A stretch of DNA of 64,000 bases from Caldilineales bacterium (GTDB lineage Bacteria; Chloroflexota; Anaerolineae; JAAEKA01): positions 141,883 through 205,882 of the forward strand of contig JAWKOJ010000007.1 in the NCBI GenBank assembly GCA_041391245.1, read 5' to 3'. How positions within the stretch are numbered: the first letter of the stretch is position 1; each line of letters begins with the position of its first letter. The notes below the pieces were generated by a model, which saw only the letters and a list, made by a program, of their open reading frames with translations, ran no database searches and was not told where the DNA came from. The position numbers were made by a program, and so were the translations under genes. Below are positions 2,812-60,404 of this stretch, in pieces.

Positions 2812-3012
2812 TCGTAGGATAGCCCCTTGTGGGCGCCCGCAGGAGAAGCGGGACGGGCACAAGGCCCTATCCTGCGCCCTGACCCGACGCAAAACCGAGA
2901 TCGTAGGATAGCCCCTTGTGGGCGCCGCAGGAAAGCGGACGGGCACAAGGCCTATCCTGCACGCCCTGACCCGACGCAAAACCGAGATCGTAGGATAGCC
3001 CCTTGTGGGCGT
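2812..3012. repeat. Tandem repeat, about 88-bp unit x 2.3 copies, each unit with an internal imperfect palindrome
   Basis: Units start at 2812, 2901 and 2988 (tcgtaggatagccccttgtgggcg...). Each holds ggatagcccc ttgtg ggc ... gggcacaagg ccctatcc. Confidence 0.85.
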
Positions 3013-3167: not shown

Positions 3168-5420
3168 ATGCCTTCAACCTCTCCCGCCGCCACGGCTGAC
3201 CAGCGCAACGGAAACGCTCGATCTGAGCGTCGGCTGCACCGCGTGGTCTTTCAGCCGGCAGGCCGGCAGGGCGACGTGCCCGAAGGAACCAGTCTGCTGG
3301 ATGCCGCGCGGCTGCTGGGCGTGGAGATCGAGTCGATCTGCGGAGGCAAACAGACCTGCGGCAAGTGCCAGGTCCGCATCGAAACAGGCCAGTTCAGCCG
3401 CCTGGGGATCGAGTCGTCCCCCGATCACGTCACCCCGGAAGCGGCACGCGAGGCGCGCTACCGGGAGGAAAAGGGCCTGCTGCCCGGCTGCCGGCAAAGC
3501 TGCGCCGCCCAGGTGCTGGGCGACGTGCTGGTCACCGTGCCCGAGGAGAGCCGGACCCATAAGCAGGTGGTGCGCAAGGCCGCCAGCCAGCGGGCGTTCG
3601 AGGTCAACCCGGCCATGCGGCTGTGTTATGTCGAATTACCGGCGGCCACCATGGACGACGAACGCAGCGACTGGGCGCGGCTGGCCGACGAACTGGCGGC
3701 GCGCTTCGACCTCGACCGCGCGCAGCTGGCCATCGACCCGGTGATCCTGCCCGCCTTGCAGCCCGCGCTCAGCCAGGGCCGCATGCGCACGCCGGAGGGC
3801 GAGGCGGTCCACGCCGTGACGGCCACCGTCTGGCACGACCGGCAGGTGGTGCGGCTGCAACCGGGCTACCGCGAGGAACTGTTCGGCGTTGCGGTGGACA
3901 TCGGCACCACCACCATCGCCGCGCATCTGGCCGAGCTGCGCACGGGACGCATCCTGGCGACCGCCAGCCGCATGAACCCGCAGATCACCTACGGCGAAGA
4001 CCTGATGTCGCGGGTCTCCTACGTCATGGAGCACCGGGACGGGCTGGCGACCCTCCGCGGCGCGGTGATCGACGCCCTCAACGGCCTGGTGGCCGATGCG
4101 ACCGACGAGGCAGACCTGACCCCCGGCGATGTCGTGGAGATGACCGCGGTGGGCAACACCATCATGCACCACATCTTCCTCGGGATCGACCCGACGGCCC
4201 TGGGCGGCGCGCCGTTTGCCACCGCCATCAAGGAGTCGCTGGACGTAAAGGCCAGGGATCTGGGCCTGCGCATCGCTCCCGGCGCCAACGTTCACATCCC
4301 GCCCGTCGAGGCCGGCTACGTCGGCGCGGACAACGTGGCCGTCATCATCGCCGAGGAGCCGCACCGCCGCGATCCGGTCACGCTGCTGATCGACGTCGGC
4401 ACCAACGGCGAGATCGTCCTGGGCAACCGCCGGCGGCTGCTCTCCGCCTCCTCCCCCACCGGCCCTGCCTTCGAGGGCGCGCAGGTGCTGCACGGCATGC
4501 GGGCTGCGCCGGGCGCGATCGAGCGGGTGCGCATCGACCCGGCGACGCTGGAAGTGCAGTACAAGGTTATCGGACGGGACGAATGGGTGAGGTCGGAGAA
4601 GGAAAAGAAGGAAAGAAGGGCAGACGGGCAGATAGCAGATAGCAGATGGCAGATGGCGGATGGCGGAGATTCGACGCTGAGCGCCAGGGAGGCGCGCGAG
4701 TTGCGGCAGCGGCTGCGGGCTGAGGAGCAGGCGACGGTGAAGGCGGCCGGCATTTGCGGGTCCGGCATCATCGAGGCGATTGCCGAGCTGTTTCTGGCCG
4801 GGCTGATGGACGGCAGCGGGCGCCTGGTCCCGGCGGCGCCTACCGACCGGCTGCAGTTCGAGGGCGCCAAGGGTTATTTTGTGCTGGCCTGGCCCCACGA
4901 AACCTCCACCGGCCGCGCGATCGTGGTCCACAGCGACGACATCCGCGCCATCCAGCTTGCCAAGGCCGCGCTGTACGCCGGCGCCAAGCTGCTGATGCGC
5001 CACTACAACCTGGAGAGCGTCGACCGGATCGTGCTGGCCGGCGCGTTCGGCTCCTACATCGACCCGCAGCACGCGATGGTGCTGGGGCTGATCCCCGACT
5101 GCGACCTGGATCACGTCAGCGCCGTCGGCAACGCGGCCGGCGACGGCGCGCTGATCCTGTTGCTCAACCAGGAAAAGCGGCGCGAGGCCGACCAGGTCGC
5201 GCGCGAGGTGCACCACGTGCAGACCGCAACCGACCCGCATTTCGAGAACGAGTTCGTGGCGGCGATTCACATCCCGCACAAGACCGATGCGTTTCCGCAT
5301 CTCCAGCCGCTGCTGGACGCCGCCGAGGCGCAACGTATCGTGCCGCCGCCGCCGACAGAGAACGGTAGCCGCGCGGGCAGATCGCGCGCCGAACGCCGTG
5401 AGCGGCAGCGCGTGGCCTGA
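3168..5420 (+). CDS. Corrinoid activation/regeneration protein (RACo-like: N-terminal [2Fe-2S] ferredoxin domain plus ASKHA/DUF4445 ATPase)
   Basis: The ATG at 3168 lies within ORF 3003..5420. The cysteine motif CGGKQTCGKCQV is present, followed by the long ASKHA-type domain (VAVDIGTTTIAAHL, LIDVGTNGEIVLG, GICGSGIIEAI). Confidence 0.85.
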   Translation: MPSTSPAATADQRNGNARSERRLHRVVFQPAGRQGDVPEGTSLLDAARLLGVEIESICGGKQTCGKCQVRIETGQFSRLGIESSPDHVTPEAAREARYREEKGLLPGCRQSCAAQVLGDVLVTVPEESRTHKQVVRKAASQRAFEVNPAMRLCYVELPAATMDDERSDWARLADELAARFDLDRAQLAIDPVILPALQPALSQGRMRTPEGEAVHAVTATVWHDRQVVRLQPGYREELFGVAVDIGTTTIAAHLAELRTGRILATASRMNPQITYGEDLMSRVSYVMEHRDGLATLRGAVIDALNGLVADATDEADLTPGDVVEMTAVGNTIMHHIFLGIDPTALGGAPFATAIKESLDVKARDLGLRIAPGANVHIPPVEAGYVGADNVAVIIAEEPHRRDPVTLLIDVGTNGEIVLGNRRRLLSASSPTGPAFEGAQVLHGMRAAPGAIERVRIDPATLEVQYKVIGRDEWVRSEKEKKERRADGQIADSRWQMADGGDSTLSAREARELRQRLRAEEQATVKAAGICGSGIIEAIAELFLAGLMDGSGRLVPAAPTDRLQFEGAKGYFVLAWPHETSTGRAIVVHSDDIRAIQLAKAALYAGAKLLMRHYNLESVDRIVLAGAFGSYIDPQHAMVLGLIPDCDLDHVSAVGNAAGDGALILLLNQEKRREADQVAREVHHVQTATDPHFENEFVAAIHIPHKTDAFPHLQPLLDAAEAQRIVPPPPTENGSRAGRSRAERRERQRVA

Positions 5421-9506: not shown

Positions 9507-10380
9507 TCAACCGGCCAGCGCCGTCCTGGCCGCCGACATCATCACGTCCAGGGGCGCCTCGTGGCCGGTCCATATCTCGAACGCCGCCGCGCCCTGAGCG
9601 ACCAGCATCTCAAGGCCGCCCTGCGTAGCACAGCCGGCCGCGGCAGCCTGGCGCAGCAGGCGAGTCTGTTCCGGCCGGTAGACCAGATCGTAGACCAGCG
9701 CGCCCGGCGGCAGAGGCAGCTCGTCCGGCCAGGGCGATGCGTCGACGGTGGGCCACATGCCTACAGGGGTGGTGTTGATGATGAGGTCGGGAGGAGGACC
9801 GGAAACGGTGAACGGTGAATTGGTGAATTGGTGAATGGTTAATGCGGGGGAGAGGGACGCGGCATGTTGGGCGAGATCGGCGGCGCGGTCTGGGCTGCGG
9901 TTCCAGATCGACAGGCTGGCAATGCCGCGCACTGCCAGCGCATAGACCACGGCGCGCGCCGACCCGCCCGCGCCCAGCAGCAGCGCTGACTTGCCCGCCA
10001 GGTCGAAGCCGCGCTCGTCCAGCGGATGCAGGAACCCCAACCAGTCGGTGTTGTCACCGCGCAGTACCGCAGGACTGGCAGTCCTCGGAAGGACTGCCAG
10101 TCCTTGGTCCACAGTGATCGTGTTCACCGCGCCGATGACGCGCGCCGCTTCGCTTAGTTCGTCCATCAGCGGCATGACGGCCTGCTTGTGGGGATTGTCA
10201 CGTTGACGCCGCGGTAGCCCCTCGCCGGCAGCCCGCGCACCACCTGCGCCACATCGGCCGGCGCGGTCGGCAGCGCGTCATAGCGCCCTCCAACCCCAGC
10301 GCTGCAAACGCCGCGTTGTGCATCGCCGGACTGATGCTGTGCCCCAGAGGCCAGCCGATGAGGCCGGTGAGAAAGGTCAT
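9507..10380 (-). CDS. aroE: Shikimate dehydrogenase AroE, with two apparent frameshifts
   Basis: Three frame pieces join in order (10380..10282, about 10280..10195, 10175..9507): GLIGWPLGHSISPAMHN, NVTIP(H)K, GDNTDWLGF, GAGGSARA, NTTPVGM. One shift is a G4 run at 10190-10193; G5 would restore NVTIPHKQAVMP. Confidence 0.8.
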
Positions 10381-10958: not shown

Positions 10959-10998
10959 TCCGGACAGGATTCAGGAACCGGAACTCAGAAGCCAGCAC

Positions 10999-13914
10999 TC
11001 AGAACTCAGAATTCGCTAGGGACACCACCACTCGAAACCCGAGGTAGTCGCCGAAGTCGTCAGGAAAGCTCCTGAAGCGGTACGCGCAACGAGCATATGT
11101 TCTATCTACATAAAATGCACCGCCGAAGTGTGAAAAGCGGTTCTCTCCCCGACCAGCGCACGCGGTCCACTCCCAGACGTTGCCGCTCATGTCCCACGCA
11201 CCGACAGGCTGGCGCCGCCAGGATAGGTACAGATAGCGGTTGTTCCCATGCCCTGGCCCGTCTTCTCGGCCACGTTGGCGTTGGCGGCATTGAACTCGCC
11301 GAGCCAGGGATACTCGCGGCCATCGACGCCTCTGGCGGCACGCTCCCATTCCTGTTCGGACGGCAAGCGCACCCGGTAGCCGGGCGGGATGGGTTCGCTG
11401 CCGCCGCCGGCCAAGACACGGCCTGCGGGCCACTATGCAGCCAGTTGCCGTAGGCCTGGGCTTCGTACCAGGAAACGCCGACCACAGGAAAAATGGGGTT
11501 GCACAGGTCAGGATCGTCCCAGAAGAAAGGCCGGTTGCGCTTGTCCAGCGGACGCAATTCTAGAATCGTTGCGTATAAATCCCTCAGGCTTTTGGCCTCG
11601 ATCAACTCCAGATCGGTGTCCGCGCCCTGACGCCACGCCCAGCCTTCCTTGCTCCACCAGCGTTCGTTGTCGTAGCCACCATCGGCCATGAAGCGGGCAT
11701 ACTGGGCGTTGGTGACTGGATATCTGGCGATCCAGTAGCGATGGGAGATAATGCGTTCTTCTCGGGTATCGCCGTAGAGGAACCTGCCTGGCTCCACCGG
11801 GACGAACGTGTCCAGGTCATCCGGCTGCCAACCAAGCCTGCCCAGTGCCAGTCCCGCTCGACGGCGCAAGGTCGGCGGCACGGCCATGTCCTGCATCGTC
11901 TCCACCAGCGCTGCGACCACCGTCTCCTTGCAGGTCGCGGTCACGCCGTCGGGCCAGGCGTCCAGCACGGCCTCGCCGGCCAGTGTCACGGCTTCGCCGG
12001 GCGGGCCGGGGCGTTCGCTGGCCAGCGCCGCCGCCACTTCGCCGGCCGCCAGGGGGCGGCGCTGCACGATGCCCAGGTAGCCCACCGTCAACAGGCTGGC
12101 CTCGCGCCACACCGGGTCGCCCACGTGCTGGCCCAGGAAGGCCGTCACCGGCTGCAGGTCCACCTGCCCCAGGGCGGCGATGCCCACCGCGGCCAGATAC
12201 TCCTCGAAGGTCAGGTGGATGAAGCCGTACTGACCCTCGCCCCTTGCCAGCAGCAGGCCGGTCTCGGCCGGGATGTCGCGCAGGAACTGCGCGGCCGCCG
12301 CCGGCGGGACGGCCGCGCCCTGCCCGCGGTAGATCTCCTCCAACTGCTGGCGCAGCGCCCACTCCGACACCAGCCCCACTCCCGGGCTTTCCCCGTGGAT
12401 CCACAGCGCCAGCGGGGCCGGACGGCCACGGTGGCCACCGTCCAGCTCGCGCCGGGCGCCTGCCGGCCCATGCTCCTCGCCCGGTTCCAACTGGAGATCA
12501 GCGTCTCTACGGCCTGGTGGTAGAGCTGCACCCGGCGCTCCGGCAGGGCGACCCCCTGGCGCTTCATCATGGCCAGCATGGTCAGCAGCAGCGGATTGGC
12601 GGCCAGCCGGCGCGCGGCCGGGTTGCGCTGCACGGTGTCCAGTAGCTCCTGGCGCTCGCGGCGCGCGTCGGCCGCGCTGATGGCCGTGTCGCCCCCCGCC
12701 TGGCGTTCCAGGGTCGCCGTCCAACGGCCCACGAAGGCCTCGATCTCATCGTCGTCGAAGTCCACCAGCGTACACTCGGCCAGGCCGTCCTGGCGTGGGC
12801 CGCACCGCCCGGTAGCCGACGATGCGGCTGGTCAGCACGAACTTGTTGCCGCGTCGCTGCTGGCCGGTGCAGAAGTCCATCACCCGCTCCACCACCCGAT
12901 GGCGCAAGGCGGCCTGCCGCACCTCGTCCAGGCCATCCAGCAGCAGCAGCGCCCGGCCGTGGGCCAGCGCATCGCCCACCATCTCCTCCATGGGCAGGTC
13001 GAGGCCGCTCGCTTTGTACGCGCCGGCGATGAACCGGTCCAGGCGCAGGTCGGGATCGTTGCTCAGCGCGCCGGCGTAGTCGGCCAGCGAGGCCAGCAGC
13101 GGCAGCCGCTCGCCGATGCCCAGCCGCTCGCCGCGCCCAGCGCCAGTTGCAGCGCCAGAACCTTGAGGAAGGTGGTCTTGCCCGCCCCCGGGTCGCCCAG
13201 GATGATCAGGCCGTCGTGCCGTCCCAGGAGGTCCAGGACGGGCACAGGCTCGCCCAGCCGGCCGGCCAGCGCCAGCGCGTCCGCCTCCGCTTCAGCCGGC
13301 TCCAGCGGCCGGCCGGCCAGGCGCAAGTGGCGCTGCCAGGTCTCGCCCTCCGGCATCTCCAGCCGCGCCTTGAGCGGCACGTAGAGATCGAGGAGCGGCA
13401 GTTGCAGGGGTATCCGGTCGTGGACGCCCATGCCCTTCAGTTGCAGATAGCGGTGGCGGTCCAGCAGATAGGTCAGGTAGGCCTCGGTCGCCCGGCGCAG
13501 CGCGGCGGGATCGCCGGCGGCCGGGCTGGCGCGTTTGCTCAGTTCGCCGGCGGTTTGGATCACCAGGTCGCGCTCGACGCGGATGCTGGTGATGTTGCCA
13601 CCGCCGGTGACGATGCTGTCGCGGCCGGTCCAATCGCCGCCATTGGTGCTGACGCTGCCGCCGACATAGGCGCCGCCGCCCGTATCAACGGTAGTGGTGG
13701 CCGCGGGCGACGGCTGGCGGCTGCGCCGGTAGCCCAGCACGGCCAGCAGCGCGCCGCCGGCCAGCAACAGGAGCTGCACCAGCGCCTCCAGGCCCTGGAT
13801 CAGCTCGCTGTTGGCCTCCGTGAAGCTCAGCAGGGCCGGCAGCCACAGCCGCGCGGTCAGGCCGAGCACGATAAGCAGCAGAGCCAGCAGGAGGAGCGGG
13901 AGGTAGCGTTTCAT
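10999..13914 (-). CDS. DGR target 1: N-terminal TM segments, STAND/NACHT-type P-loop NTPase and C-terminal FGE-sulfatase (C-type-lectin-fold) domain; at least 5 frame disruptions
   Basis: ORF pieces 13914..13063, 12991..12746, 12765..12211, 12724..11102, 11414..11187 and 11433..10999 join in order. Walker A is GDPGAGKTTF and Walker B LLLLDGLDEV. The FGE-type segments are RYPVTNAQYARF, VVGVSWYEAQAY, GNVWEWT and ARCAYR...GFRVV. Confidence 0.8.
11020..11094 (-). repeat. DGR variable repeat VR1 (3' end of target 1)
   Basis: Aligns without gaps to TR 14246..14320. There are 12 differences, all at TR coding-strand adenines. Confidence 0.9.
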
Positions 13915-15878: not shown

Positions 15879-15918
15879 CCCGGACAGGATTCAGGAACCG
15901 GAACTCAGAAGCCAGCAC

Positions 15919-18900
15919 TCAGAACTCAGAATTCGCTAGGGACACCACCACTCGAAACCCGACGTCGTAGCCGAAGCCGTCAGGAACGCCCCCGTAGCGG
16001 TACGCGCAACGAGCGAACCTTTGTTCTAAATACCAGGATCCGCCGCGCACGATGCGCAGGTCGGGGCCGGCCAGCGTCTCGCGGCCGTCGGCGGGGTCGT
16101 AGGGGTAGCCGTAGTCCGGCCTGGCCGTTTTGCCGCCCCACTTGCTGCGGGTCCACTCATAGACGTTGCCTGCCATGTCCAGCAGGCCATGCGCGCTGCG
16201 GCCGTCGGGGAAGAGGCCCACCGGGCTGGTCTGCTCCAGGCCGGCCTCCTCCGTGGCCCGTCACTCCTGCCAGCCGCCTTACCACGGCCACGCCGGCCGT
16301 CGCCGCTAACGCTCCGCCTTCTCCCACTCGGCCTCGCTGGGCAGATGCGCACCGGTAGCCGGGCGGGATGGCGACGGACTGGTCCGCGACCCGCAGCACG
16401 CCGCCGGACGCCCGCAGCCGGCCGTCCAGCCACCTGCACCAGGCCAGCGCCTCGTACCACGAAACGCCCACCACCGGCCGGTTGGCCGCGCCCCACCTGG
16501 GGTCGTCCCACCACCAGGGCTTCTTGCGCTTGTCAACGGTTCGATCTGCCAGCCAATCGGCGATGTCCTTGCGCAGATCCTCTGGCAGGTCGTCGTAGGG
16601 CGACAGGTCGGGATCCGCTCCGTTGCGCCAGGCCCAGCCTTCGTCTGTCCAGTAGTCCGGGTTGTCGTAGCCGTCCCCCTCGACGAAGGGGCGGAACTGG
16701 GCGTTGGTCACCGGAGTAGCGCGCCACGAAGTACAGCGGCAGGTCCACCCGGTGGGCGTCCCGCTCATCGTCCCAGGCCATATCCGTCGCTCTCGTCGCT
16801 TCCCATGGTGAAGGCCCGGCCGGATGGCCTGCCCAGTCGATGTCAGGCAGCGGCGACAGCCCATCCACCAGGCCGACGCCGGGCCAGGTCGCCCAGCTTG
16901 CCCAGGGCATCGCCGGCCCGCGAACTCGCCGGCCGTCAGGCGGCCGCCTTCGACCAGACGGACCAGCCAGTAACGGATGGCGCCCAGCAGGTCGCCGTAG
17001 TCCTGTCCCTCGCGAACCCGGTCCGCCAGCCGCAGCTCGGCGGCTGCCTCGCCACCAGCCCCACCATGCGCCAGCCAGCTCGTTGCGGCTCCCTGGCCGG
17101 ATTGAGGGGCGCTTAGCTCCTTCGGGAGCGTACCGCCGCTGCCGATGCCGCCGCACCCGTGGGCAGCAACAAGATCTCGCGCCACCAGTCCATGTCCTCG
17201 TCTTCAGCTCCTGAGGCGCTGGTAGAAGTCGGTCTGGTCGAACAGGTAGCTGGCGGCCAGGTATTCCTGGAAGGAGCGGTGCGGAAAGGCGTAAACCTCC
17301 TCCCGGCGTGGGATCAGCAGCCCCGCCCGATGGTGGAGATATTCCAGCAGCGTGTCCGGCGCCACCTTGCCCAGCAGCGGTTTGAAGGCCCACAAGACCC
17401 GTTCCACGGGGATGTCGGCCGGCGCGTCGCGTCCCTCGGCGTCCTGGCGTTGGCGTTCCTGGGCGTCGGCCAGCTTGTTGAGCGCCGTGCGCAGCGGGCC
17501 TTCGCCTGTCTCCAGCACCTGTAGAATCCCCGGCTCGACCACCGGCTGGCCGCCAGGGCCGACCGCCTCGCGCGCCCGCTGCCAGCGGGAGAGCAACAGG
17601 CTGACCGACTGCTCGTACAGATCGGCCCGATCCTCGGGCAGCTGACCGCGACTGGAGTGCAAGGTCGCCATCAGCGTCAGCAGCAAAGGCGAAGGTGGCC
17701 AGGTCGGCCAGATAGGGCGCTCCACCAGAGCCTCCTGCAGATCTGGCCCTTCTTGCGCGCCGTCTCCTCGCTCCACCCCATGGCCGGACGCACCGCCTGC
17801 TGCCAGCGCCCGATGAAGCGCCTGCTGTTCTTCATTGAAAGGCGCCAGGGCAGGGTCGTGAAGGCCTCCAGCCGCCACTGCGGATCGGCGTAGGCGTAGG
17901 GGCGGGCGGTGACCGAAATCGTCCGGTGTCTGCGAGGCAGCGTGGCCGCCATTCCGGCCACTGCTTCCAGCGAAGGGTATGGCGGCAGCGGCCGGCCTCC
18001 GGCGCTTCGTCCAGGCCGTCCAGCAGCACCAGTCCGCCTTCCTGGCACAGCCGCCGCTGGACCTCCGGCAGCAGCAGCGCCGCGGCCAGTTGGCCAGAGC
18101 GCGTGCCAATATCCGCTTCAGCGCCTGCCACAGCATGCCGGCATCGCCGCGGCGGGCGTCAGCCGGGATGTGCTCGGCCGCCACACTCGCGCGGGATCGG
18201 GCGCGACAGCCGGCCCTGCAGGATGTCGGGCAGAAGGCCGGTCTGCCGGAGCGGTCGGGGTCGGCCAGCAGGTAGCTCAGATGGTTGACGAAGGTGGTCT
18301 TGCCGCTGCCGGCGTCGCCCACCAGGACCGAGCGCGGCTCGCTGGCCAACGCTGCCAACGCAGGCACGCGGCCGCCTGCTTCACCCAGGCCGCGCACCAG
18401 CCGCAGCGCCCAGCCGCGCTCGGTCTCCGCCTCTCTGGGCGCCGAGGGGATCACATCCAGGTCCACGTAGACATCGGGCAGCGGAATGGTCTGTTGTTCG
18501 CCGGTTCCCAGCCACTTGGCGTCGATGACGCCCAGCGGCGAACGGCGACAGTCGGCCGCCAGCCACTGGTAGTAAGCGTGCAACAGCGTATCCACCGGCG
18601 CCAGCTCGGGCGCAAGTCGTTGGCGCTCGCCAGAAACGTTGATCACGATAAGACCGTTTGCGTCGCCGCCGACGATGAACGAGCCATCGGCCAGCGTTGC
18701 CATCACCTTGTCGCGCCCGACGAACTCGCGCGCTGAAACATTGCCGGCCACCAGAGACCCGCCGCCGGTATTGATCTGAAGTGCTGCAGTTGAGCCTCAC
18801 TGCGGCGCAGCGACTCGCACCTCGCCGGCGCCGGCTGCCGCCAGGAGGCTGGCAATGAGGTCACCGCACCCGCTGCAAATTGCTGCGCAGCGTGTCGAGA

Positions 18901-18997: not shown

Positions 18998-20302
18998 CTA
19001 ACCATTCTCTAGCTCCGCGCCCAGGCTTGCCAGCATGCGCTCGAAGCCGGGGAAGCTGTCGGCGATGCAGCCGGTGTCCTCGACCAGCACCGGACCGTCG
19101 GCCGCCAGCCCGGCTACGACCAGCGCCATGGCCAGGCGGTGGTCCCCGTGGCTGTTGACCGGCGCGCTGCGCAGCCTGGTCGGACCCTCGACCACGAAGC
19201 CATCGGGCCGCTCCTCGATCTGTGCCCCCAGGGTACGCAGCTCGGCCACCACTGTCGCGATGCGGTCGGTCTCCTTGACGCGCAGCTCGGCCGCGTCGCG
19301 CACGACGGTGCGACCAGTTGCCTGGGTGGCCAGCACCGCGATCACCGGCAGCTCGTCGATCAGGCGCGGGATCAGCGCGCCGCCGATCTCTGCGCCGCGC
19401 AGCTGGCCGGGCTGCACGACCAGGTCGGCTACCGGCTCGCCGGCCTCGTCGCGCAGGTTATCGGCGCGCACCGCGCCGCCCATCTGCGCCACGATGTCGA
19501 GAATGCCGGTGCGGGTCGGGTTGACGCCCACAGCCTCCAGGGTGACGTGGCCGCCGGGCGCCAGCAGCGCCGCGGCCAACAAGAACGCGGCCGAGGAGAT
19601 GTCGCCCGGCACGGTGATGTCCAGCGGCAGGAGCGGGCGCTTGGGTCGTTCGCTCGCGATGACCTGGCCGACCCGGCCCGCCTGCGCGCCCATCGCAGTC
19701 AGCATCCGTTCGGTGTGGTCGCGGGTCGGCGCCGGCTCGCGCACGACAGCCAGCCCGTTGCTGTAGAGGCCGGCCAGCAGGATGGCCGACTTGACCTGCG
19801 CGCTGGCTACCGGCATGGCGTAGTCGACGCCGCTCAGCGGGTGTCCTTGAATGGCCAGCGGCGCCTGCCTGCCGCCCTGCCGTCCGTGAATGGTCGCGCC
19901 CATCAGTCGCAGCGGTTCTACGATGCGGCCCATGGGACGACGGGTCAGTTGCGCACTGCCGTCGAGGATGCTGAAGAACGCCTGGCCGGCCAGCAGGCCG
20001 GCCAGCAGGCGCATGGTCGTGCCGGAGTTGACGCAGTCCAGCGGGCGCGCCGGCTCCTGCCAGCCGTGCAGTCCGGCGCCGTCGATGCGCAGTTCGGTCG
20101 TGGCTGGCTGGTCGATGGTCACGCCCAGCGATCGCAGCACACCGACGGTTGCCAGGCAGTCGCCGCCGGGCAGGAAGTTGCGGATGCGGCTCTCGCCCTC
20201 GGCCAGCGACGCAAACATGGCGGCGCGGTGCGAGATCGACTTGTCGCCGGGGACGCGGGCGGTACCGAGAAGTTCCTGGGCAGGATGGATGATGAGGTTC
20301 AT
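18998..20302 (-). CDS. aroA: 3-phosphoshikimate 1-carboxyvinyltransferase (EPSP synthase)
   Basis: 434 aa. Contains VPGDKSISHRAAMFASLAEG, NSGTTMRLL and DHRLAMA. Confidence 0.92.
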   Translation of the reverse strand: MNLIIHPAQELLGTARVPGDKSISHRAAMFASLAEGESRIRNFLPGGDCLATVGVLRSLGVTIDQPATTELRIDGAGLHGWQEPARPLDCVNSGTTMRLLAGLLAGQAFFSILDGSAQLTRRPMGRIVEPLRLMGATIHGRQGGRQAPLAIQGHPLSGVDYAMPVASAQVKSAILLAGLYSNGLAVVREPAPTRDHTERMLTAMGAQAGRVGQVIASERPKRPLLPLDITVPGDISSAAFLLAAALLAPGGHVTLEAVGVNPTRTGILDIVAQMGGAVRADNLRDEAGEPVADLVVQPGQLRGAEIGGALIPRLIDELPVIAVLATQATGRTVVRDAAELRVKETDRIATVVAELRTLGAQIEERPDGFVVEGPTRLRSAPVNSHGDHRLAMALVVAGLAADGPVLVEDTGCIADSFPGFERMLASLGAELENG

Positions 20303-20373
20303 GGGACTCGTGATGCGTGAAGGATGAAACGTGATGCTTATTGCGTCGAGGTGACTGTCACCTGGATGGCGGG

Positions 20374-21276
20374 CTATGCCCCGTGTTGATCGATGAAAGC
20401 CTGCCGGCGCGCCTGGATCGATTGCAGCGCTTGGCGCAGGGCCTGGTCGTCGTCACCGGCAACCAGGCTGGCAAGCTGGTCGAGCTGGCTGCGCAGCCGG
20501 TCGATGTGTTCCAAAACGGCCGCCCGGTTGCTGTGCAGGATGTCGGCCATCATCAGTGGATCGCTGCCGGCCAGCCGGGTTGTGGAACGAAAGCCGCCCG
20601 CGGCCAGTTGCCAGATTGTTTCGTCGCCATCCGCCTGCTCAGCAGCAGCCGCGAAAAGAGCCGCTGATGCGAGATAGGGAACGTGGCTGATGGCGGCCGC
20701 CAGCCGGTCGTGGCGCAGCGGGTCCAGCTCCAGCGGGCACGCGCCGATTGCCTGCGCCAGTGCGGCCGCCAGCGCGGTTGCCTGCGGCTGCGTGCCCGGC
20801 AACGGACAGAGGATGAACGGGGCATCGCGGTAGAGACTGCTTTCGGCGACGTCCAGCCCGGAGGTTTCCTTGCCGCACATGGGATGGCCGCCGACCGGCT
20901 GCACACTGGCTGGCAGCCGCGCCATGGCGTCGCAAATGGCGGCCTTGGTGCTGCCCATGTCGGTGAGCACGACGCCGTCGCGCAATCTGCCCTGCCTGGC
21001 CAGCGCGCCGACTTCCCCGATCTGGCGCAGGATGATGCTCACCGGTGTCGCCAGGACGATCAGGTCCGCGTTGCCGGCCGCGCTGAGATCGCTCGCGCCG
21101 TCATCGATTGCGCCGATGGCCAGCGCCTGCTCAACCGTTTCGGCGCGGCGGGCGATGCCAAGCACACTTTGCACACGGCCGCGCAGCGCCAGCCCCAGCG
21201 ATCCGCCCATCAGTCCCAAACCGGCTATTGCCACCGTGCAGCCGGCCAGGGGTTTGTCGTATGCGAAGCTACTCAA
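20374..21276 (-). CDS. tyrA: Prephenate/arogenate dehydrogenase
   Basis: An N-terminal GxGxxG (IAGLGLMGGSLGLAL) precedes the prephenate dehydrogenase core (GGHPMCGKE). Confidence 0.8.
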   Translation of the reverse strand: MSSFAYDKPLAGCTVAIAGLGLMGGSLGLALRGRVQSVLGIARRAETVEQALAIGAIDDGASDLSAAGNADLIVLATPVSIILRQIGEVGALARQGRLRDGVVLTDMGSTKAAICDAMARLPASVQPVGGHPMCGKETSGLDVAESSLYRDAPFILCPLPGTQPQATALAAALAQAIGACPLELDPLRHDRLAAAISHVPYLASAALFAAAAEQADGDETIWQLAAGGFRSTTRLAGSDPLMMADILHSNRAAVLEHIDRLRSQLDQLASLVAGDDDQALRQALQSIQARRQAFIDQHGA

Positions 21277-21312
21277 GGTTGTCCTTTGTTGGGAGCAAAC
21301 GGCAAACGATCA

Positions 21313-22326
21313 CTAAAGCGTCCGCCCCACCGCCTCGGCGACCAGGCGCGTCTCACGCACCAGTTGGGCAAAGCGCTCCGGTTTTAGGCTCTGCGCGCCA
21401 TCCGACAGGGCGTGTTCCGGGTCGTGATGAACTTCGATGATCAGGCCGTCAGCGCCGGCTGCCACCAGCGCCCTGGCGACCGGCGCCACCAGCGCCCATT
21501 TGCCGGTGCCGTGGCTGGGGTCGCCGATGACCGGCAGATGCGTCAGTTGCTTCAGCGCCGGAATGGCGTTGATGTCGGTGGTGTTGCGGGTGTAGGTCTC
21601 GAAGGTGCGGATGCCGCGCTCGCACAGCATGACGTTGTAGTTGCCGGCCGACATGATGTACTCGGCCGACATCAGCAGCTCCTCGATGGTGCTCATCATG
21701 CCGCGCTTCAGCAACACCGGCCGGCTGGACGCGCCAACTGCCAGCAGCAGGGCGTAGTTCTGCATATTGCGGGCACCGATCTGCAGAATGTCGGCGTATT
21801 CGGCCACCAGGTCCACCTTGTCGGGCGCCATCACCTCGGTGACGATGGCCAGCCCGGTCTGCTCGCGCGCTTCGGCCAATATCTCCAGGCCTTCGACGCC
21901 CAGCCCCTGGAACGAGTAGGGCGACGAGCGCGGCTTGTAGGCGCCGCCGCGCAGGATGGTCGCGCCGGCTTCCTTGACCGCGTGGGCCGCCTCCAGCAAC
22001 TGGCCGCGGCTCTCGACGCTGCACGGCCCGGCCATCATCGCCAGCTGACGGCTGCCGATCCTGGTGGTTCCCACATCGACGACGGTGTTTTCCCGCCGCC
22101 ACTCGCGGCTGGCCAACTTGTACTGCGGCAGAATCGAGATCGTCTTCTCGACTCCGTCCATCAACTCGAACGTGGCCGGCTCCAGCGTGCGCTCGTCGCC
22201 GATGACGCCGATGATGGTGCGCTCGGTTCCCTGGCTCAGATGCGCCTTGAATCCCAACTCGTCGATGCGGTTGGTGACGTGCTCAACCTCGGCAAGCGCT
22301 GCACCGGCTTTCATGACTATGATCAT
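21313..22326 (-). CDS. aroF: 3-deoxy-7-phosphoheptulonate (DAHP) synthase, type I-beta with an N-terminal regulatory domain, paralogue 1
   Basis: 337 aa. Contains [42 protein letters not shown] and DPSHGTG. Confidence 0.9.
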
Positions 22327-22535
22327 AGCATAACCTCGTGGTAGAGTCTGTGAAATTCTACATCAAGTGGTGGCATTTGGCGGAAAGCTGGGAGACGTAG
22401 TGCGTACTGCGTAATGCGTAGCTGGTGACCGGCTCGTAAAGTGCCGTGGGTGTGTAAAGAAAACAGCGGTCCACTGATAGCGCGGACACCGCAGAGGCAC
22501 CCAGACCCACCAACACACAATACGCACTACGCTGC

Positions 22536-23549
22536 TCATAGCTCCCGCCCCAACGCCCCTGCCAACGCCTTCAACTCGCGCATCATCTGGGCGAAGCGCT
22601 CCGGCTTCAGGCTTTGCGGACCGTCCGACGTCGCTTCCTCGGGTCGGGGATGCACCTCGATGATCAGGCCGTCCGCGCCGCAGGCGACCGCAGCCTTGGC
22701 CATCGGCGCCACCAGATCCCAGCGGCCGGTGCCGTGGCTGGGGTCGCCGATGACAGGCAGGTGGCTGAGCTGCTTGAGCAGCGGCACGGCGTTCAGGTCG
22801 AAGGTGTTGCGGGTCATCGGCTCAAAGGTGCGGATGCCGCGCTCGCACAACATCACCCGGTAGTTGCCGTTGGACATGATGTACTCAGCCGACATCAACA
22901 GCTCCTGGATGGTGCTCATCATGCCGCGCTTGAGCAGCACCGGCCGCTGGGTCCGTCCCACCGCGTTCAGCAGGCCGTAGTTCTGCATGTTGCGCGCCCC
23001 GATCTGCAGGATGTCCGCGTACTGGCTGACCATCGGGACCGCGTCGGGCGTCATCACCTCGGTGATGATCTTGAGACCGGTGGCCTCGCGCGCTTCGGCC
23101 AGCAGCTCCAGTCCCTTCAGCCCCATGCCCTGGAAGGAATAGGGGGAAGTGCGCGGCTTGAAGGCGCCGCCGCGCAGGATGCGCGCGCCGGCCTCCTTGA
23201 CCGCCTGGGCTGTCTCGATCAGTTGGCTGCGGCTCTCGACGCTGCACGGACCGGCCATCACCACCAGCTTGTTCCCGCCGATGGTGGTGCCGTTGAGGGC
23301 GATCACCGTGTCCTCGGGCATGGTCTGGCGGCTGGCCAGCTTGAACTGGTGCCCGATGCGGGTGACGGTTTCGACGCCGGGCATCTGCAGGAACACCTCC
23401 GGCTCGACCTTGACCGCTTCGCCCACCACCGCGATCACCGTGTGCATCTCCCCGTAGATCGGGTGCGGCGTCAGGTCAAGCTCCTCGACCCGGGCAATGA
23501 GCGAGCCGATCTCGGCGGCCGTGGCCCCTTTTTTCATGACGACGATCAT
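22536..23549 (-). CDS. aroF: DAHP synthase, type I-beta with an N-terminal regulatory domain, paralogue 2
   Basis: 337 aa with the same catalytic motifs as paralogue 1. The N-terminal 90 aa or so are much more diverged than the barrel. Confidence 0.9.
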
Positions 23550-23660: not shown

Positions 23661-24977
23661 CTAGATCTGCAGCATCTCGCGCTGCCCCGCATCGCCGTTC
23701 TCCGCCGGCATCTCGGCCGCGGGATAGGAGCCGAGGTGCTTGACAAAGGCCGCACGCGTCAGCAGGCCAACCATCGCCTGCTGGCAGCCGGGATCCTGCC
23801 AGTGGCCGTCGAAGTCGAGGTAGAAGACGTAGTGCCACGGGCGGTTGCGCCGCGGCCGGCTTTCGATCTTGGTCAGGTTGATGCCGCGGCTGGAGAATTC
23901 GTTGAGGCACGCCACCAGCGACCCCGGTTCGTGGGTCACCGCGAACACCAGCGATGTCTTGGCGTTGCCGCTGACCGGCGGATCGCCGCGGCCGACAACG
24001 AAGAAGCGGGTGTAGTTCCAGGTCAGGTCCTCGATGCCGCTGGCGAGAATCTCCAGCCCGTATGTTGTCGCGGCCAGGCTGCTGGCGATGACGGCCACAC
24101 CCGACTCCGGCGACGCTGCCAGCTCCTTGGCGCTGCCGGCGGTGTCGTACCAGGTGACCGCCTTGAGGCCGCGCTGGTTGATCCAGCGTTCACACTGCGC
24201 CAGCGCCTGCGGATGCGAGCGCACCGTGGTGATGTCCTGCAAGGCGGTGCCGGGCGGCGCCATCAGATTATGGCGCACCCGCAGCAACACCTCGCCCCAG
24301 ACACGCAGGTCGCGCTCCAGCAGCAGGTCGAAGGCACGGTTGATGGAGCCGGCCACCGAGTTCTCCACCGGCAGCACGCCGAAGTCCGCCTCCCGGGACT
24401 CGACGGCCGCGAAGATGCCCTCGAAGGCGTAACACGGCAGGGACGCCACCTCCTGGCCGAAATGCTGGAACACAGCTTGCTCCGAGTAGGCTCCGTGCTC
24501 GCCCTGAAACGCTACGACGCTCATTCTTTTCTCCTTCTTGGCGGACTTCTGATTCCGCCATGTGGTAACCTGGCGCTCGATCCAGCCTTCCAGCTCGTTG
24601 TCGTTGACCGGAGGCAGCTCCGCCTTGTCCGGCCGCAGATTGCGCGCGCCCCGCAGGTAGACGTGTACCACGTCGTGCCCGGGCGTGTCGGTGTTCCAGT
24701 TGACCAGCACCCGGATGCAGCGCGGCAGCCCGCCCGGCACATCCATCTCGTGGCCGCACAGCAGCGCCGTGTCCAGCCAGCCCAGCTGGCGGGCGGCCAG
24801 CGCAGGGTACTCGGCGGTCAGGTCGCGCGTCGTCGAGAAGATGATGCTGGCCACATCGTCTGGGCGAATGCCGTTGAGGTGGATCATCAACGCCAGCAGG
24901 CGGCGCGTCTCGCGCAGGATCGCTTCAGGTGTGTTCTCGTCGGCGGTAGTGGCGCCGCGGACGCCTCGACTGGGCAT
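23661..24977 (-). CDS. pheA: Bifunctional AroH-type chorismate mutase / prephenate dehydratase (with C-terminal ACT domain)
   Basis: ATG at 24977 follows GGAGG. The N-terminal 120 aa or so match AroH-class CM ([11 protein letters not shown]..., [22 protein letters not shown]). PDT follows ([18 protein letters not shown]), then ACT (ESRP...PWHYVFYLD). Confidence 0.85.
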
Positions 24978-25059
24978 AGGGCCTCCGGATGATGCTGTAC
25001 CTGTTCGCGCTGCGGCTCGGTCGGACACCGGCCGCAGCGCGCAGGGCGTCTGGTTGCAC

Positions 25060-25087
25060 AAAAAAACGTGGAGCCTTGCGCTCCACG
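25060..25087 (-). terminator. Intrinsic terminator inside the aroH-pheA 5' leader (attenuator)
   Basis: Minus strand: cgtggagc-gcaag-gctccacg followed by ttttttt. It lies 83 nt upstream of the pheA ATG and 30 nt after the leader-ORF stop. Confidence 0.7.
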
Positions 25088-25117
25088 CTCTTGTCGGTCG
25101 GATCGGAAGTTTCCTGG

Positions 25118-25288
25118 TCAGGACACCGGTGCAGACTGGGCGTGAAGCGCGCGTGTTGATCCCGCAAAGTAGTAGGAAAAATAAAAACCGCACCAGGACA
25201 GGTCCAGGCGCGGGCGCGGAATCGAAGTGACGCTCTCCACAAGAGAGTGGCTATGTTGGTGTCGATGGGCGATCAAACGGGTGTGCAT
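25118..25288 (-). CDS. Candidate aromatic-rich leader peptide (56 codons; W32-C-G-F-Y-F-S-Y-Y-F41)
   Basis: ATG at 25288 with GAGGA 11 nt upstream. Codons at 25195..25166 are TGG TGC GGT TTT TAT TTT TCC TAC TAC TTT. The TGA at 25120-25118 sits between the predicted promoter and the terminator. Confidence 0.45.
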
Positions 25289-25314
25289 GTGACAGGAGTT
25301 CCTCAAGCAGCGAG

Positions 25315-25344
25315 ATGGTAACACAACCGGTCGAGGCTGTCAAA
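25315..25344 (-). promoter_or_regulatory. Sigma70-like promoter of the aromatic operon leader
   Basis: Minus strand: TTGACA (25344-25339), a 17-nt spacer, then TACCAT (25320-25315), with TGT immediately upstream of the -10. Confidence 0.45.
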
Positions 25345-25411: not shown

Positions 25412-25441
25412 TTGGCTACCAGGCAGTGTCTCTGTTAAAAT
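25412..25441 (+). promoter_or_regulatory. Possible divergent promoter for the MCM small-subunit gene
   Basis: TTGGCT (25412-25417), an 18-nt spacer, then TAAAAT (25436-25441), preceded by TGT. Confidence 0.35.
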
Positions 25442-25484
25442 GCCGCTATCGTGCATAGACGCGCTAGCCAACGGAGATACCCCC

Positions 25485-25895
25485 ATGCCAGAACGAAAAA
25501 TTCGCATTCTCGTCGCCAAGCCCGGACTGGACGGCCACGACCGCGGCGCCAAAGTAGTGGCCCGTTCGCTACGCGACGCTGGCTTCGAGGTGATCTACAC
25601 CGGCATCCGCCAGACGCCAGAGATGATCGCCGAAGCGGCCCTGCAGGAGGACGTGGACGTCGTCGGCCTTAGCATCCTCTCCGGCGCCCACATGGCCCTT
25701 TGCCCGCGGGTCGTCGAATTGCTGCGCGCCGAGGGCATGGAGGACGTGATTGTCCTGGTAGGCGGCATCATCCCTGACGAGGACATCGAGCCGCTGCGGG
25801 CGGCCGGCGTGGAGGGAATCTTCGGTCCCGGGACCAACACCCAGGACATCGTCGCCTTCATCAACCAACGAACAGGGCAGCCGGTTCCGGCATGA
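25485..25895 (+). CDS. Methylmalonyl-CoA-mutase-family B12-binding small subunit
   Basis: ATG at 25485 follows GGAG. Contains [34 protein letters not shown] (DxHxxG-type) and [10 protein letters not shown]. Confidence 0.85.
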
Positions 25896-47274: not shown

Positions 47275-47428
47275 GAGCAGCAGAGTGACAGAATGACAGA
47301 GTGGCAGAGTGACAGAATGACAGAGTGGCAGAGTGACAGAGCGACAGGACAGAGCAGCCAGCGCTGACCCTCTGACTCTCTGACTCTCTGTTCTTCTGAC
47401 CTTCTGTTCTTCTGACCTTCTGACCTTC
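47275..47428. repeat. Intercistronic low-complexity element: gacaga/gtggcaga words (24-nt unit x 2) followed by ctctgac/ttctgac words
   Basis: cagagtgacagaatgacagagtgg occurs at 47281-47304 and again at 47305-47328. The complementary-composition CT-rich half is at 47368-47428. Confidence 0.75.
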
Positions 47429-60323: not shown

Positions 60324-60404
60324 AGCTGGTTACATAGATTTGGTTTTCTGGCCACCGCAGAGTGCGCACACTCGCCATCCAAAGCCCAACGCTCAACGCC
60401 CAAC

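Follow-up and report, generated by a model that had tools for sequence, protein, structure and literature searches.

The window analysed here, a stretch of 64,000 nucleotides, carries on its minus strand an operon for aromatic amino acid biosynthesis and, 5' of it, a leader region; all leader and operon coordinates refer to that strand (Table 1). The enzymes encoded belong to the phenylalanine branch, the tyrosine branch and the common pathway, and with five genes identified, the description given by the first-pass annotation, an operon for Phe, Tyr and their common precursors, is right in substance. A longer form of the first regulated gene, aroH-pheA, beginning at an in-frame GTG at 25193, was considered and rejected because relatives align from residue 1 at the ATG at 24977, because the extension would include a terminator and because a GGAGG ribosome-binding site (24986..24982) sits before that ATG. 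Between the terminator and this ribosome-binding site lies a long GC palindrome that is specific to this genome, being absent in the nearest relatives (L001 and L011), and that is probably not part of the switch described below. The promoter scan returned two promoter-like sites compared with 0.2 expected. The TTGACA-17-TACCAT promoter noted earlier is present, its upstream end lying at 25343 and not, one base further, at 25344. Sequence comparison places a TTGACA-17-TAnnnT promoter likewise 5' of the leader in relatives.

Table 1. Features of the leader and of the aromatic operon in the 64,000-nt window.
Feature	Position	Strand	Description
Sigma-70-type promoter	25315..25343	-	-35 TTGACA 25343..25338; 17-nt spacer; extended -10 TGtTACCAT, hexamer 25320..25315
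Possible Shine-Dalgarno sequence GAGGAA	25299..25304	-	10-11 nt 5' of leader ATG; read from sequence
Leader ORF	25118..25288	-	56 codons + TGA; ATG 25288; TGA 25120..25118
H0, small hairpin	25233..25250	-	CTCTC/GAGAG or CCAC/GUGG; inside ORF; tentative
H1, GC-rich hairpin	25188..25213	-	Inside ORF, codons 26-34; -16 to -20 kcal/mol
U tract UUUUUAUUUUU	25177..25187	-	Directly 3' of H1; in frame (GG)U UUU UAU UUU U
Putative regulatory codon run	25166..25195	-	Codons 32-41; 3 Phe, 3 Tyr and 1 Trp in 10; F-Y-F-S-Y-Y-F at 25186..25166
Region 2, antiterminator 5' strand	25139..25152	-	Core gcgcttcacgc 25150..25140; inside ORF, codons 46-50
Apical hairpin of antiterminator	25112..25123	-	UCCU-GACC-AGGA; stop TGA 25120..25118 at stem/loop junction
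Region 3	25078..25088	-	gcgtggagcgc; common to antiterminator (with region 2) and terminator (with region 4)
T2, intrinsic terminator	25060..25087	-	8-bp stem cgtggagc/gctccacg, 5-nt loop (25087..25067); T7 25066..25060
Long GC palindrome	25006..25044	-	Between T2 and ribosome-binding site; specific to this genome
aroH-pheA, first regulated gene	23661..24977	-	AroH-type chorismate mutase + prephenate dehydratase + ACT domain fusion, 438 aa
DAHP synthase	22536..23549	-	Rest of operon 18998..23549
Second DAHP synthase	21313..22326	-	Aromatic operon
Prephenate dehydrogenase	20374..21276	-	Aromatic operon
EPSP synthase	18998..20302	-	Aromatic operon

The leader contains an open reading frame in which codons 32-41 are rich in aromatic residues, exactly where the first-pass annotation had placed them. 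Six-frame translation of the window, which has a GC content of 66%, yields exactly one ten-codon stretch with at least six F/Y/W residues, namely this run. Its Phe codons are all TTT and its Tyr codons TAT, TAC and TAC, set against a usage of TTC 34 : TTT 6 and TAC 26 : TAT 3 in the five operon genes. The earlier remark that TTT and TAT are used atypically is thus correct for Phe, given the preference of the operon genes for TTC, but TAT accounts for just one of the three Tyr codons. The Trp codon (codon 32) falls within the 3' arm of hairpin H1 (cCTGGtgcgg) and, in this genome, may be a by-product of that stem rather than a regulatory codon. The possible Shine-Dalgarno sequence is kept in L001 and L011, in the latter 6 nt 5' of a GTG start; in many relatives the ribosome-binding site of the leader ORF is weak or absent and some appear to be leaderless. 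As a whole, the leader RNA folds more stably than its own shuffled versions (z = -3.6).

The intrinsic terminator T2 begins 30 nt past the leader stop, and both sequence and folding bear out the 8-bp stem and U7 tract proposed for it. Runs of at least six T residues number only seven in the whole window, both strands included, and that of T2 adjoins a perfect hairpin. T2 is missing from the consensus terminator scan and was checked by hand and by folding; the probable cause of the omission is that an extension of the stem enters the T tract (AAGAGC.../...GCUUUUU, 13 pairs). The alternative pairing of 25150..25140 with 25088..25078 that had been predicted comprises 10 Watson-Crick pairs and one G-U pair, and is the minimum free energy (MFE) fold of the window leader when the 3' terminator arm is omitted. 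The earlier designation of this helix as a textbook 2:3 antiterminator is slightly too strong, since region 2 lies within the ORF, some 20 nt 5' of the stop, and leader folds of the window and its relatives revealed no conserved 1:2 (anti-antiterminator) pairing. The full-length MFE fold of the window leader instead pairs region 2 with sequence near H0, and full-length MFE folds computed without a ribosome disagree between close relatives. An outer stem around H1 and the aromatic run, formed by GAUUCCGCG/UGCGGGAUC in the window and by GCGUUGGC/GCCAACGC in L002-L008, was discerned by eye in the nearest clades only and was discarded as a general feature. The stop codon touches the apical loop of the antiterminator in 14 of 29 leaders and is located just 5' of that loop in most of the others.

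Two further hairpins are found inside the ORF. At the position of H0 most relatives possess a hairpin of unrelated sequence, although its z-scores are mostly weak and its energies do not consistently beat those of shuffled sequences, and H0 was therefore rejected as a significant structure. H1 is followed directly by a U tract that constitutes the first Phe/Tyr codons, and the two together form a terminator-like signal, designated T1. The suggestion of the first-pass annotation that this upstream hairpin could act as a pause site or early terminator holds anatomically. H1 is kept in 34 leaders, with a stem-to-U-tract distance of 0 nt in 33 of them, and one stem position varies between AU (9), GC (12) and GU (5). 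These pairs were counted with the U tract as anchor, because the cross-clade MAFFT alignment left the 5' arms of H1 out of register. The stem sequence is more conserved than that of T2 and always encodes P-R...R-G-F, so that constraint on the peptide and constraint on the RNA are inseparable here. A metagenome scan was also performed, using as query the H1+U motif of a second clade, from which the window's own H1 differs slightly. Of its 81 matches, about 70 proved to be ordinary terminators with unrelated surroundings, and the motif is indistinguishable from these; such a scan is useful as a control and poor for finding new regulon members. All six metagenomic leaders with enough downstream sequence precede aroH-pheA, three of them also showing DAHP synthase genes, and there is therefore no evidence for other regulated operons.

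The same layout, comprising a consensus promoter, an ORF of 25-66 codons with 5-9 Phe/Tyr/Trp codons in 10 and an intrinsic terminator, is found upstream of the same operon in ~43 relatives. All of these are metagenome-assembled genomes (MAGs), from Caldilineales and Anaerolineae and including one assigned to Anaerolinea thermophila, together with one Rhodothermales MAG. Within a first set of 29 relatives, whose downstream enzyme is 52-93% identical, an aromatic-rich ORF occurs at the same position and in the same frame in every case, the best F/Y/W window always falling within one open frame upstream of the gene; 12 more leaders were added later, among them one in the MAG assigned to A. thermophila. 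The ORF has 52-66 codons in most leaders: 52-56 are typical of the nearest clade and 59-66 of the second, and distant relatives have 25-48. The stop lies exactly 48 nt (16 codons) past the run in 22 of the 29. The distance from H1 to region 2 is 43/46 or 51/54/57/63 nt, and all within-clade differences are multiples of three. Spacer codons vary (TCC, GCG, GGA, AGC, GGC) and aromatic positions stay aromatic (TAC/TAT/TGG/TTT/TTC). This codon pattern, coupled with the frame-keeping indels, shows signs of selection acting on the codons rather than on the sequence as such.

A covariance model derived from the leader alignment has a single match in the window (72.7 bits) and matched 41 of 78 related genome loci, always just upstream of pheA and on the coding strand; these matches include 12 loci outside model building, which scored 67-83 bits. 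Searches against existing families gave no Rfam match at E<=10 in the leader region or at gathering score in the window, no Rfam match, T-box included, at E<=0.5 in eight relatives, and no Pfam or NCBIfam match at E<=10 for five leader peptides. The leader is therefore neither a T-box nor a homologue of pheL.

Both helices covary. Run on the full alignment, RNAalifold predicts the terminator, and once the 3' arm is removed it predicts the antiterminator. For T2, 96.5% of cells are paired and five pairs have changed on both sides (slid controls 37-77%), whilst for the antiterminator 87.9% are paired and eight of 10 pairs have changed on both sides (slid controls 31-58%). The two structures are found in every leader, those lacking H1 included. 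The elements, their conservation, the keeping of frame, the covariation of the two helices and the mutual exclusivity of these helices are thus apparent from the comparison of relatives. The first-pass annotation had made its attenuator depend on conservation of the mini-ORF and the alternative pairing upstream of orthologous genes, and there both proved to be conserved, with covariation.

Ribosome occupancy was represented by folding the leaders with a footprint masked. If the footprint covers the last aromatic codon, the window leader adopts an MFE fold with 12 antiterminator pairs and no terminator pairs. When the footprint on the stop codon alone is masked, the window leader prefers the antiterminator at equilibrium and 22 of 29 leaders prefer the terminator; in the second clade, the terminator remains the favoured equilibrium fold when the ribosome is modelled as stalled (13 of 29). 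Equilibrium footprint folding therefore reproduces the on-state in the clade of the window, but neither the on-state of the second clade nor the off-state of the window leader. As region 2 ends ~20 nt before the stop, a ribosome parked on the stop codon would leave it uncovered, and the persistence of the antiterminator under this footprint implies that the off-state of the window leader needs sterics, kinetics or trailing ribosomes. By the same reasoning, antitermination in the second clade has to be kinetic.

Four hallmarks of a leader-peptide attenuator are present at this locus. Codons for F/Y/W make up seven of 10 in the window run and 5-9 of 10 in relatives, ahead of an operon that makes Phe and Tyr; the leader ORF is kept in position and frame in all relatives for which sequence is available; an intrinsic terminator separates the ORF from the first structural gene; and the antiterminator is exclusive with this terminator and would be free to form when a ribosome stalls at the run. 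The leader is accordingly very likely to be a ribosome-mediated transcription attenuator of the aromatic operon that senses charged tRNA-Phe and tRNA-Tyr, and it is proposed that the attenuator in relatives also senses tRNA-Trp. It is the conservation of the layout in more than 40 related Chloroflexota genomes that makes a ribosome-sensing switch of the classical trp/pheA type very probable. From this arrangement we infer translation of the leader, stalling of the ribosome and termination, as follows. Transcription would start ~20 nt 5' of the leader ATG, and a ribosome would translate the 56-codon ORF behind RNA polymerase. When Phe- or Tyr-tRNA is scarce, the ribosome would stall in the F-Y-F-S-Y-Y-F run and, because the core of region 2 begins 15 nt past the last Phe codon, leave region 2 uncovered. 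This region could then pair with region 3 as soon as the latter emerges, blocking the T2 hairpin and allowing polymerase to read into aroH-pheA. When both tRNAs are plentiful, the ribosome would cross region 2 and reach the stop at the antiterminator apex, unzipping the 5' half of that structure; region 3 would then pair with region 4 and transcription would end at the U7 tract.

What T1 contributes to this attenuator is less certain. There is close to an even chance that it serves as a pause or termination checkpoint within the ORF, past which polymerase is carried only by a closely following ribosome. Such a checkpoint would bring ribosome and polymerase into step precisely at the regulatory codons, and would shut down the operon in the absence of leader translation, which is the job of the 1:2 hairpin in the trp leader. 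Taken further, and more tentatively, the leader may be a two-stage attenuator in which a coupling checkpoint of the pyrBI type, T1, precedes a codon-reading switch of the trp type. In the first stage, polymerase would pause or terminate at T1 unless a ribosome melts H1, with an in-register handover to the second. T1 would thereby replace the 1:2 anti-antiterminator of textbook attenuators. An ORF of this length (52-66 codons) would allow trailing ribosomes to mask region 2 under an ample supply of aromatic amino acids.

A genuine switch could also be set by something other than a ribosome, such as a small-molecule riboswitch, a tRNA bound in T-box-like fashion or an RNA-binding protein at H0 or H1, the aromatic codons being incidental to a U-rich tract. 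This would account for the conserved H0 and H1 hairpins, which the classical model does not need, for the strong conservation of the H1 stem sequence and for the often weak ribosome-binding sites of the leader ORF. Nevertheless, it is unlikely: neither the window nor the eight relatives match an Rfam family, T-box included, even at permissive thresholds; the aromatic run, at 27-57 nt, exceeds what a U tract needs and also uses TAC, TGG and TTC; the reading frame is kept across indels; and the stop remains at its fixed 16-codon distance in leaders of otherwise unrelated sequence. Furthermore, short variants that lack H1 (L017, L036, L038 and L058) retain the ORF, the run and the switch. In another explanation, the leader peptide would do the sensing or be a functional product, either as a TnaC-like arrest peptide for free aromatic amino acids or as a small hydrophobic protein, rather than a string of codons read passively. 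Two segments that recur across clades would speak for such a peptide, P-R-x(3-6)-(W)-R-G-F ahead of the run and S-P-(F/S)-C-A following it, but this motif is missing in the short variants, and the positions conserved are exactly those encoded by base-paired RNA, namely by the arms of H1 and by region 2. For a leader peptide the ORF is of unusual length and its C-terminal tail is fixed at 15 residues, yet the N-terminal 25-30 residues are without any conservation and the peptide has no Pfam or NCBIfam match, leaving this explanation with a very low probability.

The order of the two terminators bears on a further alternative, in which T1 is the main regulated terminator, set in pyrBI-like fashion solely by the closeness of the ribosome to polymerase, and the T2 switch is secondary. 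By sequence, T1 is indeed a canonical intrinsic terminator within the ORF, and its retention in 34 leaders fits such a role. However, a stall at the aromatic codons is possible only after polymerase has transcribed the T1 U tract, and T1 itself therefore cannot read the supply of Phe and Tyr; T2 and its antiterminator covary, and no leader lacks them, not even where H1 is absent. Primary control by T1 is thus highly improbable, and attenuation by a ribosome reading Phe and Tyr codons remains the preferred explanation.

The probable attenuator has counterparts among characterised systems. Like E. coli pheL-pheA, trpL and hisL, it has a leader ORF in which codons for the products of the pathway form a run and, as in pheL-pheA, an intrinsic terminator precedes the first gene, the antiterminator uses the 5' arm of the terminator and the regulated gene encodes chorismate mutase/prephenate dehydratase. 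Despite these parallels, it belongs to another phylum and shows neither sequence nor covariance-model similarity to pheL-pheA, with no match to the Rfam Phe_leader model or the NCBIfam PheL protein HMM. Its ORF has 56 codons as opposed to 15 in pheL, and its regulatory codons are mixed Phe/Tyr(/Trp) rather than Phe only. The ORF includes region 2 and has its stop at the antiterminator apex, whereas the textbook stop falls just before region 2. Textbook attenuators also differ in their 1:2 pairing, of which no conserved equivalent was found here, and the terminator-like hairpin 5' of the regulatory codons sets the present leader apart. Mixed codons have precedents in the ilvGMEDA (Leu/Val/Ile) and thr (Thr/Ile) leaders, which exert multivalent control of a branched pathway. 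These likewise mix codons for several end products in one peptide, but they concern other amino acids, share no homology and have 21-32 codons in a four-segment textbook layout.

The nearest analogue of T1 is provided by the E. coli pyrBI and pyrE attenuators, in which an intrinsic terminator is situated inside a leader ORF of ~44 codons and readthrough needs a close ribosome; T1 matches this arrangement in placing a terminator hairpin and U tract within the leader ORF. pyrBI senses UTP through pausing of polymerase; it possesses neither a regulatory codon run nor a second terminator/antiterminator switch, whereas T1 is followed by a codon-reading switch. T-boxes control aromatic amino acid genes in Firmicutes and some Chloroflexi, binding uncharged tRNA directly with no need for translation. 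They too regulate aromatic genes through a terminator/antiterminator decision governed by tRNA charging, but the leader was rejected as a T-box, as it has no Rfam T-box match and contains no specifier-loop or T-box sequence. Leader-peptide attenuators of Actinobacteria and Firmicutes were likewise found by comparative genomics, from a conserved small ORF with regulatory codons and from hairpins that can form alternatively. These examples demonstrate recurrence of the mechanism beyond Proteobacteria and control trp, leu, ilv, his and aminoacyl-tRNA synthetase genes, none of them in Chloroflexota (PMC1262725, PMC2965389, PMC9413887, PMC10272879). For Phe/Tyr genes in Actinobacteria no RNA element was found (PMC1262725), and only possible cases of pheL outside Proteobacteria, in Bacteroides and Desulfobacterium, have been noted (PMC3082878).

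Leader-peptide attenuation is a textbook mechanism whose documented cases come mostly from Proteobacteria, and scattered ones are known from Actinobacteria, Firmicutes and Bacteroides (PMC2965389, PMC3082878, PMC1262725). No description of attenuation in Chloroflexota was found in the literature searched, although a survey of 2010 by Lopatovskaya et al. (PubMed 20198868) may contain a mention. On the evidence of the sequences, the leader family is judged to be real, undescribed and of known mechanism. A covarying example across Anaerolineae and Caldilineales would extend leader-peptide attenuation to Chloroflexota, and would imply tight coupling of transcription and translation in this little-studied and mostly uncultured group. 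It would also represent a new cis-regulatory RNA family, absent from Rfam, that could be used to annotate aromatic amino acid regulation in Chloroflexota MAGs from wastewater, soil and sediments. With a terminator made of regulatory codons inside the ORF, a stop near the antiterminator apex and mixed Phe/Tyr/Trp codons, the layout lends itself naturally to testing how far the four-segment textbook design is needed.

The candidate leader lies in a 500-nt divergent intergenic region between a B12-binding-domain gene and the 438-aa aroH-pheA fusion gene. Downstream of the latter, the same strand encodes two DAHP synthases with ferredoxin-like regulatory domains, a prephenate dehydrogenase and an EPSP synthase. 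The DAHP synthases are tandem paralogues of 337 aa each (21313..23549, minus strand), both with the ferredoxin-like domain at the N-terminus; metagenomic relatives (L156) carry the pair too, and the two may be isoenzymes that differ in feedback regulation while sharing one attenuator. The first-pass annotation had proposed a Phe/Tyr/Trp leader-peptide attenuator upstream of aroH-pheA, and the promoter, leader ORF, terminator after the ORF (T2), alternative pairing and upstream hairpin (H1), with a U tract made of the first aromatic codons, are all present. All coordinates of leader, switch and operon features refer to the minus strand.

Features of the proposed attenuator locus in the window
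Feature	Coordinates	Strand	Details
B12-binding-domain gene	25440..25895	plus	ORF
Extended -10 promoter	25343..25315	minus	TTGACA-17-TACCAT
Leader ORF	25288..25118	minus	56 codons; aromatic-rich run at codons 32-41
H1	25213..25188	minus	GC-rich hairpin; UUUUUAUUUUU directly 3'
Antiterminator	25150..25140 with 25088..25078	minus	11-bp pairing; MFE fold once the terminator 3' arm is withheld
Terminator T2	25087..25067, 25066..25060	minus	8-bp hairpin, U7
438-aa gene	start ATG 24977	minus	AroH-type chorismate mutase (CM_1), prephenate dehydratase and ACT domain fusion

The leader stands out in its 66% G+C surroundings. In six-frame translation it is the single stretch of the window with at least six Phe, Tyr or Trp in 10 codons, and its fold is more stable than shuffles (z = -3.6). 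The operon genes prefer TTC (34:6) and TAC (26:3) while the leader uses TTT in 3/3 cases, which bears out the claim of atypical TTT use. Runs of at least six T number only seven on both strands, and that of T2 adjoins a perfect hairpin. A consensus terminator scan of the window did not list T2 (25060..25087) despite its clear hairpin and U7, an absence that does not mean that a terminator is lacking; the folded stem comprises 13 pairs, including A-U and G-U pairs, and was likely missed because this extension runs into the T tract. Codons 2-14 (25247..25285) encode five His in 13 residues, a feature partly kept in the relative L001, absent in L011 and probably due to chance.

Scanning one genome per species with the fused enzyme yielded 78 related loci. 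The closest, with identities of 52-93% (mostly 58-93%), come from Chloroflexota MAGs labelled Anaerolineales, Anaerolineae, Caldilineales, Caldilineaceae and Litorilinea; one Rhodothermales MAG (L056) is also among the loci. The first 29 loci examined all have their best upstream aromatic-rich stretch in one open frame, with 5-9 aromatic codons per 10 in the run and a hairpin plus T tract 49-71 nt past the stop codon. Counted from ATG or GTG, ORFs of the window's clade have 52-56 codons and those of a second clade 59-66; three distant Anaerolineae have 32-48. In 22/29 the end of the stop codon is exactly 48 nt away from the last aromatic codon, a distance kept even in otherwise unrelated leader sequences (L017, L036, L038). 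The -35 box ahead of the relatives' leaders is a perfect TTGACA, or TTGACG in two of them, and the -10 is TG-extended. Further leaders occur at loci whose pheA has no fused mutase (L020, L021, L023-L025, L028, L032-L034, L037) and ahead of unfused aroH genes, one from a Promineifilaceae MAG (L055), the other from a MAG assigned to Anaerolinea thermophila (L058; MCSSRVAYWFYFYSGISPRTAGGSA*). At about 3950..4000 of L058, aroH starts with five tandem copies of ATTCGCGGC, whose Ile-Arg-Gly repeats duplicate the enzyme's conserved N-terminal IRG motif; this may be a true expansion of the repeat or an artefact of assembly.

Both competing helices are conserved in an alignment that was not fitted to any structure (MAFFT, 29 sequences, last aromatic codon to T2 U tract). 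RNAalifold returns the terminator from the full alignment and, once the 3' arm is cut off, the helix between region 2 (antiterminator 5' strand) and region 3 (shared with the terminator 5' arm). The terminator is paired in 96.5% of cells, with changes on both sides in 5/10 pairs (slid controls 37-77%); the antiterminator in 87.9%, with such changes in 8/10 pairs (slid controls 31-58%). No column shuffle matched the observed pairing or covariation score. The pairing partners differ by clade: the window's clade uses GCGCUUCACGC/GCGUGGAGCGC, the second clade CGCCAUUC..CGC/GCG.GGGAUGGCG, L017 GGUUGCUUUGCGU/ACGUGGAGCAACC and L056 CUUCCGCGU/GCGCGGAAG. A covariance model of the alignment has a single match in the window (25058..25168, 72.7 bits) and matches 41/78 related loci, always immediately ahead of pheA and on its coding strand; 12 of these, outside the training set, score 67-83 bits. 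The observations of the first-pass annotation are confirmed and its interpretation is supported. In L029 (3740..3860, 83 bits) the ORF is broken after GFLFPP and the aromatic run goes on in another frame, which may reflect either decay of the leader or a homopolymer error, the MAG being a long-read one. L056 (3776..3933) carries the same fused gene (57% identity) and leader layout (FASFYFGFGFYFGFFSF) but only 31 bits; either operon and attenuator were transferred together, or there is a link to the Bacteroides-type pheL (PMC3082878).

Several features support the ORF being read as codons. Among close relatives, non-aromatic codons inside the run vary freely (TCC, GCG, GGA, AGC, GGC), and aromatic positions switch only among TTT, TTC, TAT, TAC and TGG, L001 holding the one exception. 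H1 and region 2 lie 43/46 nt apart in leaders of the window's clade and 51/54/57/63 nt apart in those of the second, so that length changes within each clade are all multiples of three. The N-terminal 25-30 residues show no conservation, which argues against a functional protein, and five leader peptides had no Pfam or NCBIfam match at E<=10. For H1 an RNA constraint and a peptide constraint are inseparable, since its arms encode P-R...R-G-F in every case. In 34 leaders H1 is a 7-12-bp GC-rich stem inside the ORF (-12 to -21 kcal/mol), with one position alternating between A-U (9), G-C (12) and G-U (5). In 33/34 it ends exactly at the start of a UUUU(U)AUUUU or UUUUCUUUU tract, which reads G-F-Y-F or G-F-S-F in frame, so the tract is itself the first regulatory codons. 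In sequence terms, H1 and its tract (T1) are an intrinsic terminator; when the motif was scanned against metagenomes, about 70/81 matches were ordinary terminators in unrelated contexts.

The leader anatomy fits ribosome-mediated attenuation, a mechanism suggested by its geometry. Under starvation, the last Phe codon (25168..25166) would occupy the A site and place the ribosome's leading edge at about 25156, so that region 2, from 25150, would be free; with this footprint masked, the window leader folds with 12 antiterminator and 0 terminator pairs. The stop codon lies at or beside the apical loop of the long antiterminator hairpin, touching it in 14/29 and lying just 5' of it in most others. 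In replete cells, an undelayed ribosome would have to cross region 2 to reach this codon near the apex, and full translation would therefore unzip the antiterminator 5' half, leaving region 3 for region 4, the terminator 3' arm. One weakness of this model is that the stop codon lies about 20 nt beyond the end of region 2, which a ribosome waiting at the stop would leave uncovered. With only the stop-codon footprint masked, the terminator is favoured in 22/29 leaders and the window leader still favours 2:3 at equilibrium; on this modelling, the off-state must rest on steric exclusion, timing or trailing ribosomes. Another weakness concerns the second clade, where the equilibrium fold favours the terminator even when a ribosome is stalled; antitermination there would have to be kinetic, as happens in many attenuators.

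Folds of the window leader and its relatives revealed no 1:2 anti-antiterminator pairing that is conserved. On the best reading, given slightly less than even weight, H1/T1 would fill the role of the trp 1:2 hairpin. It would act as a hairpin-dependent pause or termination site relieved only by an arriving ribosome, synchronising ribosome and polymerase exactly at the regulatory codons and shutting off untranslated transcripts. H1 is absent from the short leaders L017, L036, L038 and L058, so that, judging from these sequences, the switch should also work without it.

The spacer between T2 and the gene is variable. In the window it holds a GC-rich palindrome ahead of the aroH-pheA ribosome-binding site (CTGCGCGCTGCGGC...GCCGCAGCGCG, stem about 14 bp; 25006..25050, minus strand) that occurs once in the window and may represent an insertion or a hairpin that stabilises the mRNA; it is missing from L001 and L011, the nearest relatives, where the spacer measures only about 25 nt. 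In L002-L008 the spacer is expanded to 150-500 nt (e.g. L005 3563..3981) and holds heptamer arrays (CGTAATG, GTTACGA, ACGCATC) and 56- and 62-nt tandem units, partly palindromic, which look like a repeat or miniature mobile element family inserting after the attenuator. The window itself contains many short arrays of 7- or 8-nt units (4627..4664, 9807..9844, 10981..11011, 15901..15931, 47281..47428, 52556..52590, 61977..62007), namely GGCAGAT x5, GGTGAAT x5, GAACTCA x4 twice, CAGAGTGA x8, CTGACCTT x8, ACCAATCT x4 and GCGTGAT x4. These recall cyanobacterial short tandemly repeated heptamers, and the GCGTGAT array resembles heptamers in the relatives' spacers. Longer tandem repeats lie at 2812..3011 and 60404..60651 (units of 87 nt x2.3, 94% matches, and 128 nt x1.9, 92% matches).

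The closest analogue of H1/T1 is the pyrBI leader, where a terminator inside the 44-codon leader ORF is read through only with a ribosome close behind. In its predicted mode of action the Chloroflexota leader resembles pheL-pheA, trpL and the multivalent ilv/thr leaders, but it belongs to none of those families. Neither the window nor eight relatives matched any Rfam model, and a T-box identity was rejected on this basis. The pheL leader is in essence confined to Gammaproteobacteria, apart from possible cases in Bacteroides and Desulfobacterium (PMC3082878). As of 2010, leader peptides were thought to be known only from Proteobacteria and Actinobacteria, to which Firmicutes were then added (PMC2965389); in Actinobacteria no RNA element was found on Phe/Tyr genes (PMC1262725). 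Later additions are his leaders from Firmicutes and, in Corynebacterium, an ilvB uORF (PMC9413887, PMC10272879). Nothing on attenuation in Chloroflexota was found in the full-text literature searched, an earlier mention being possible, for example in the survey PubMed 20198868. The leader is a real, conserved cis-regulatory family that very probably extends a known mechanism to a new lineage, with a distinct architecture. Its core mechanism is textbook; for specialists in transcription-translation coupling and RNA regulation, the interest lies in its phylogenetic reach and embedded terminator.
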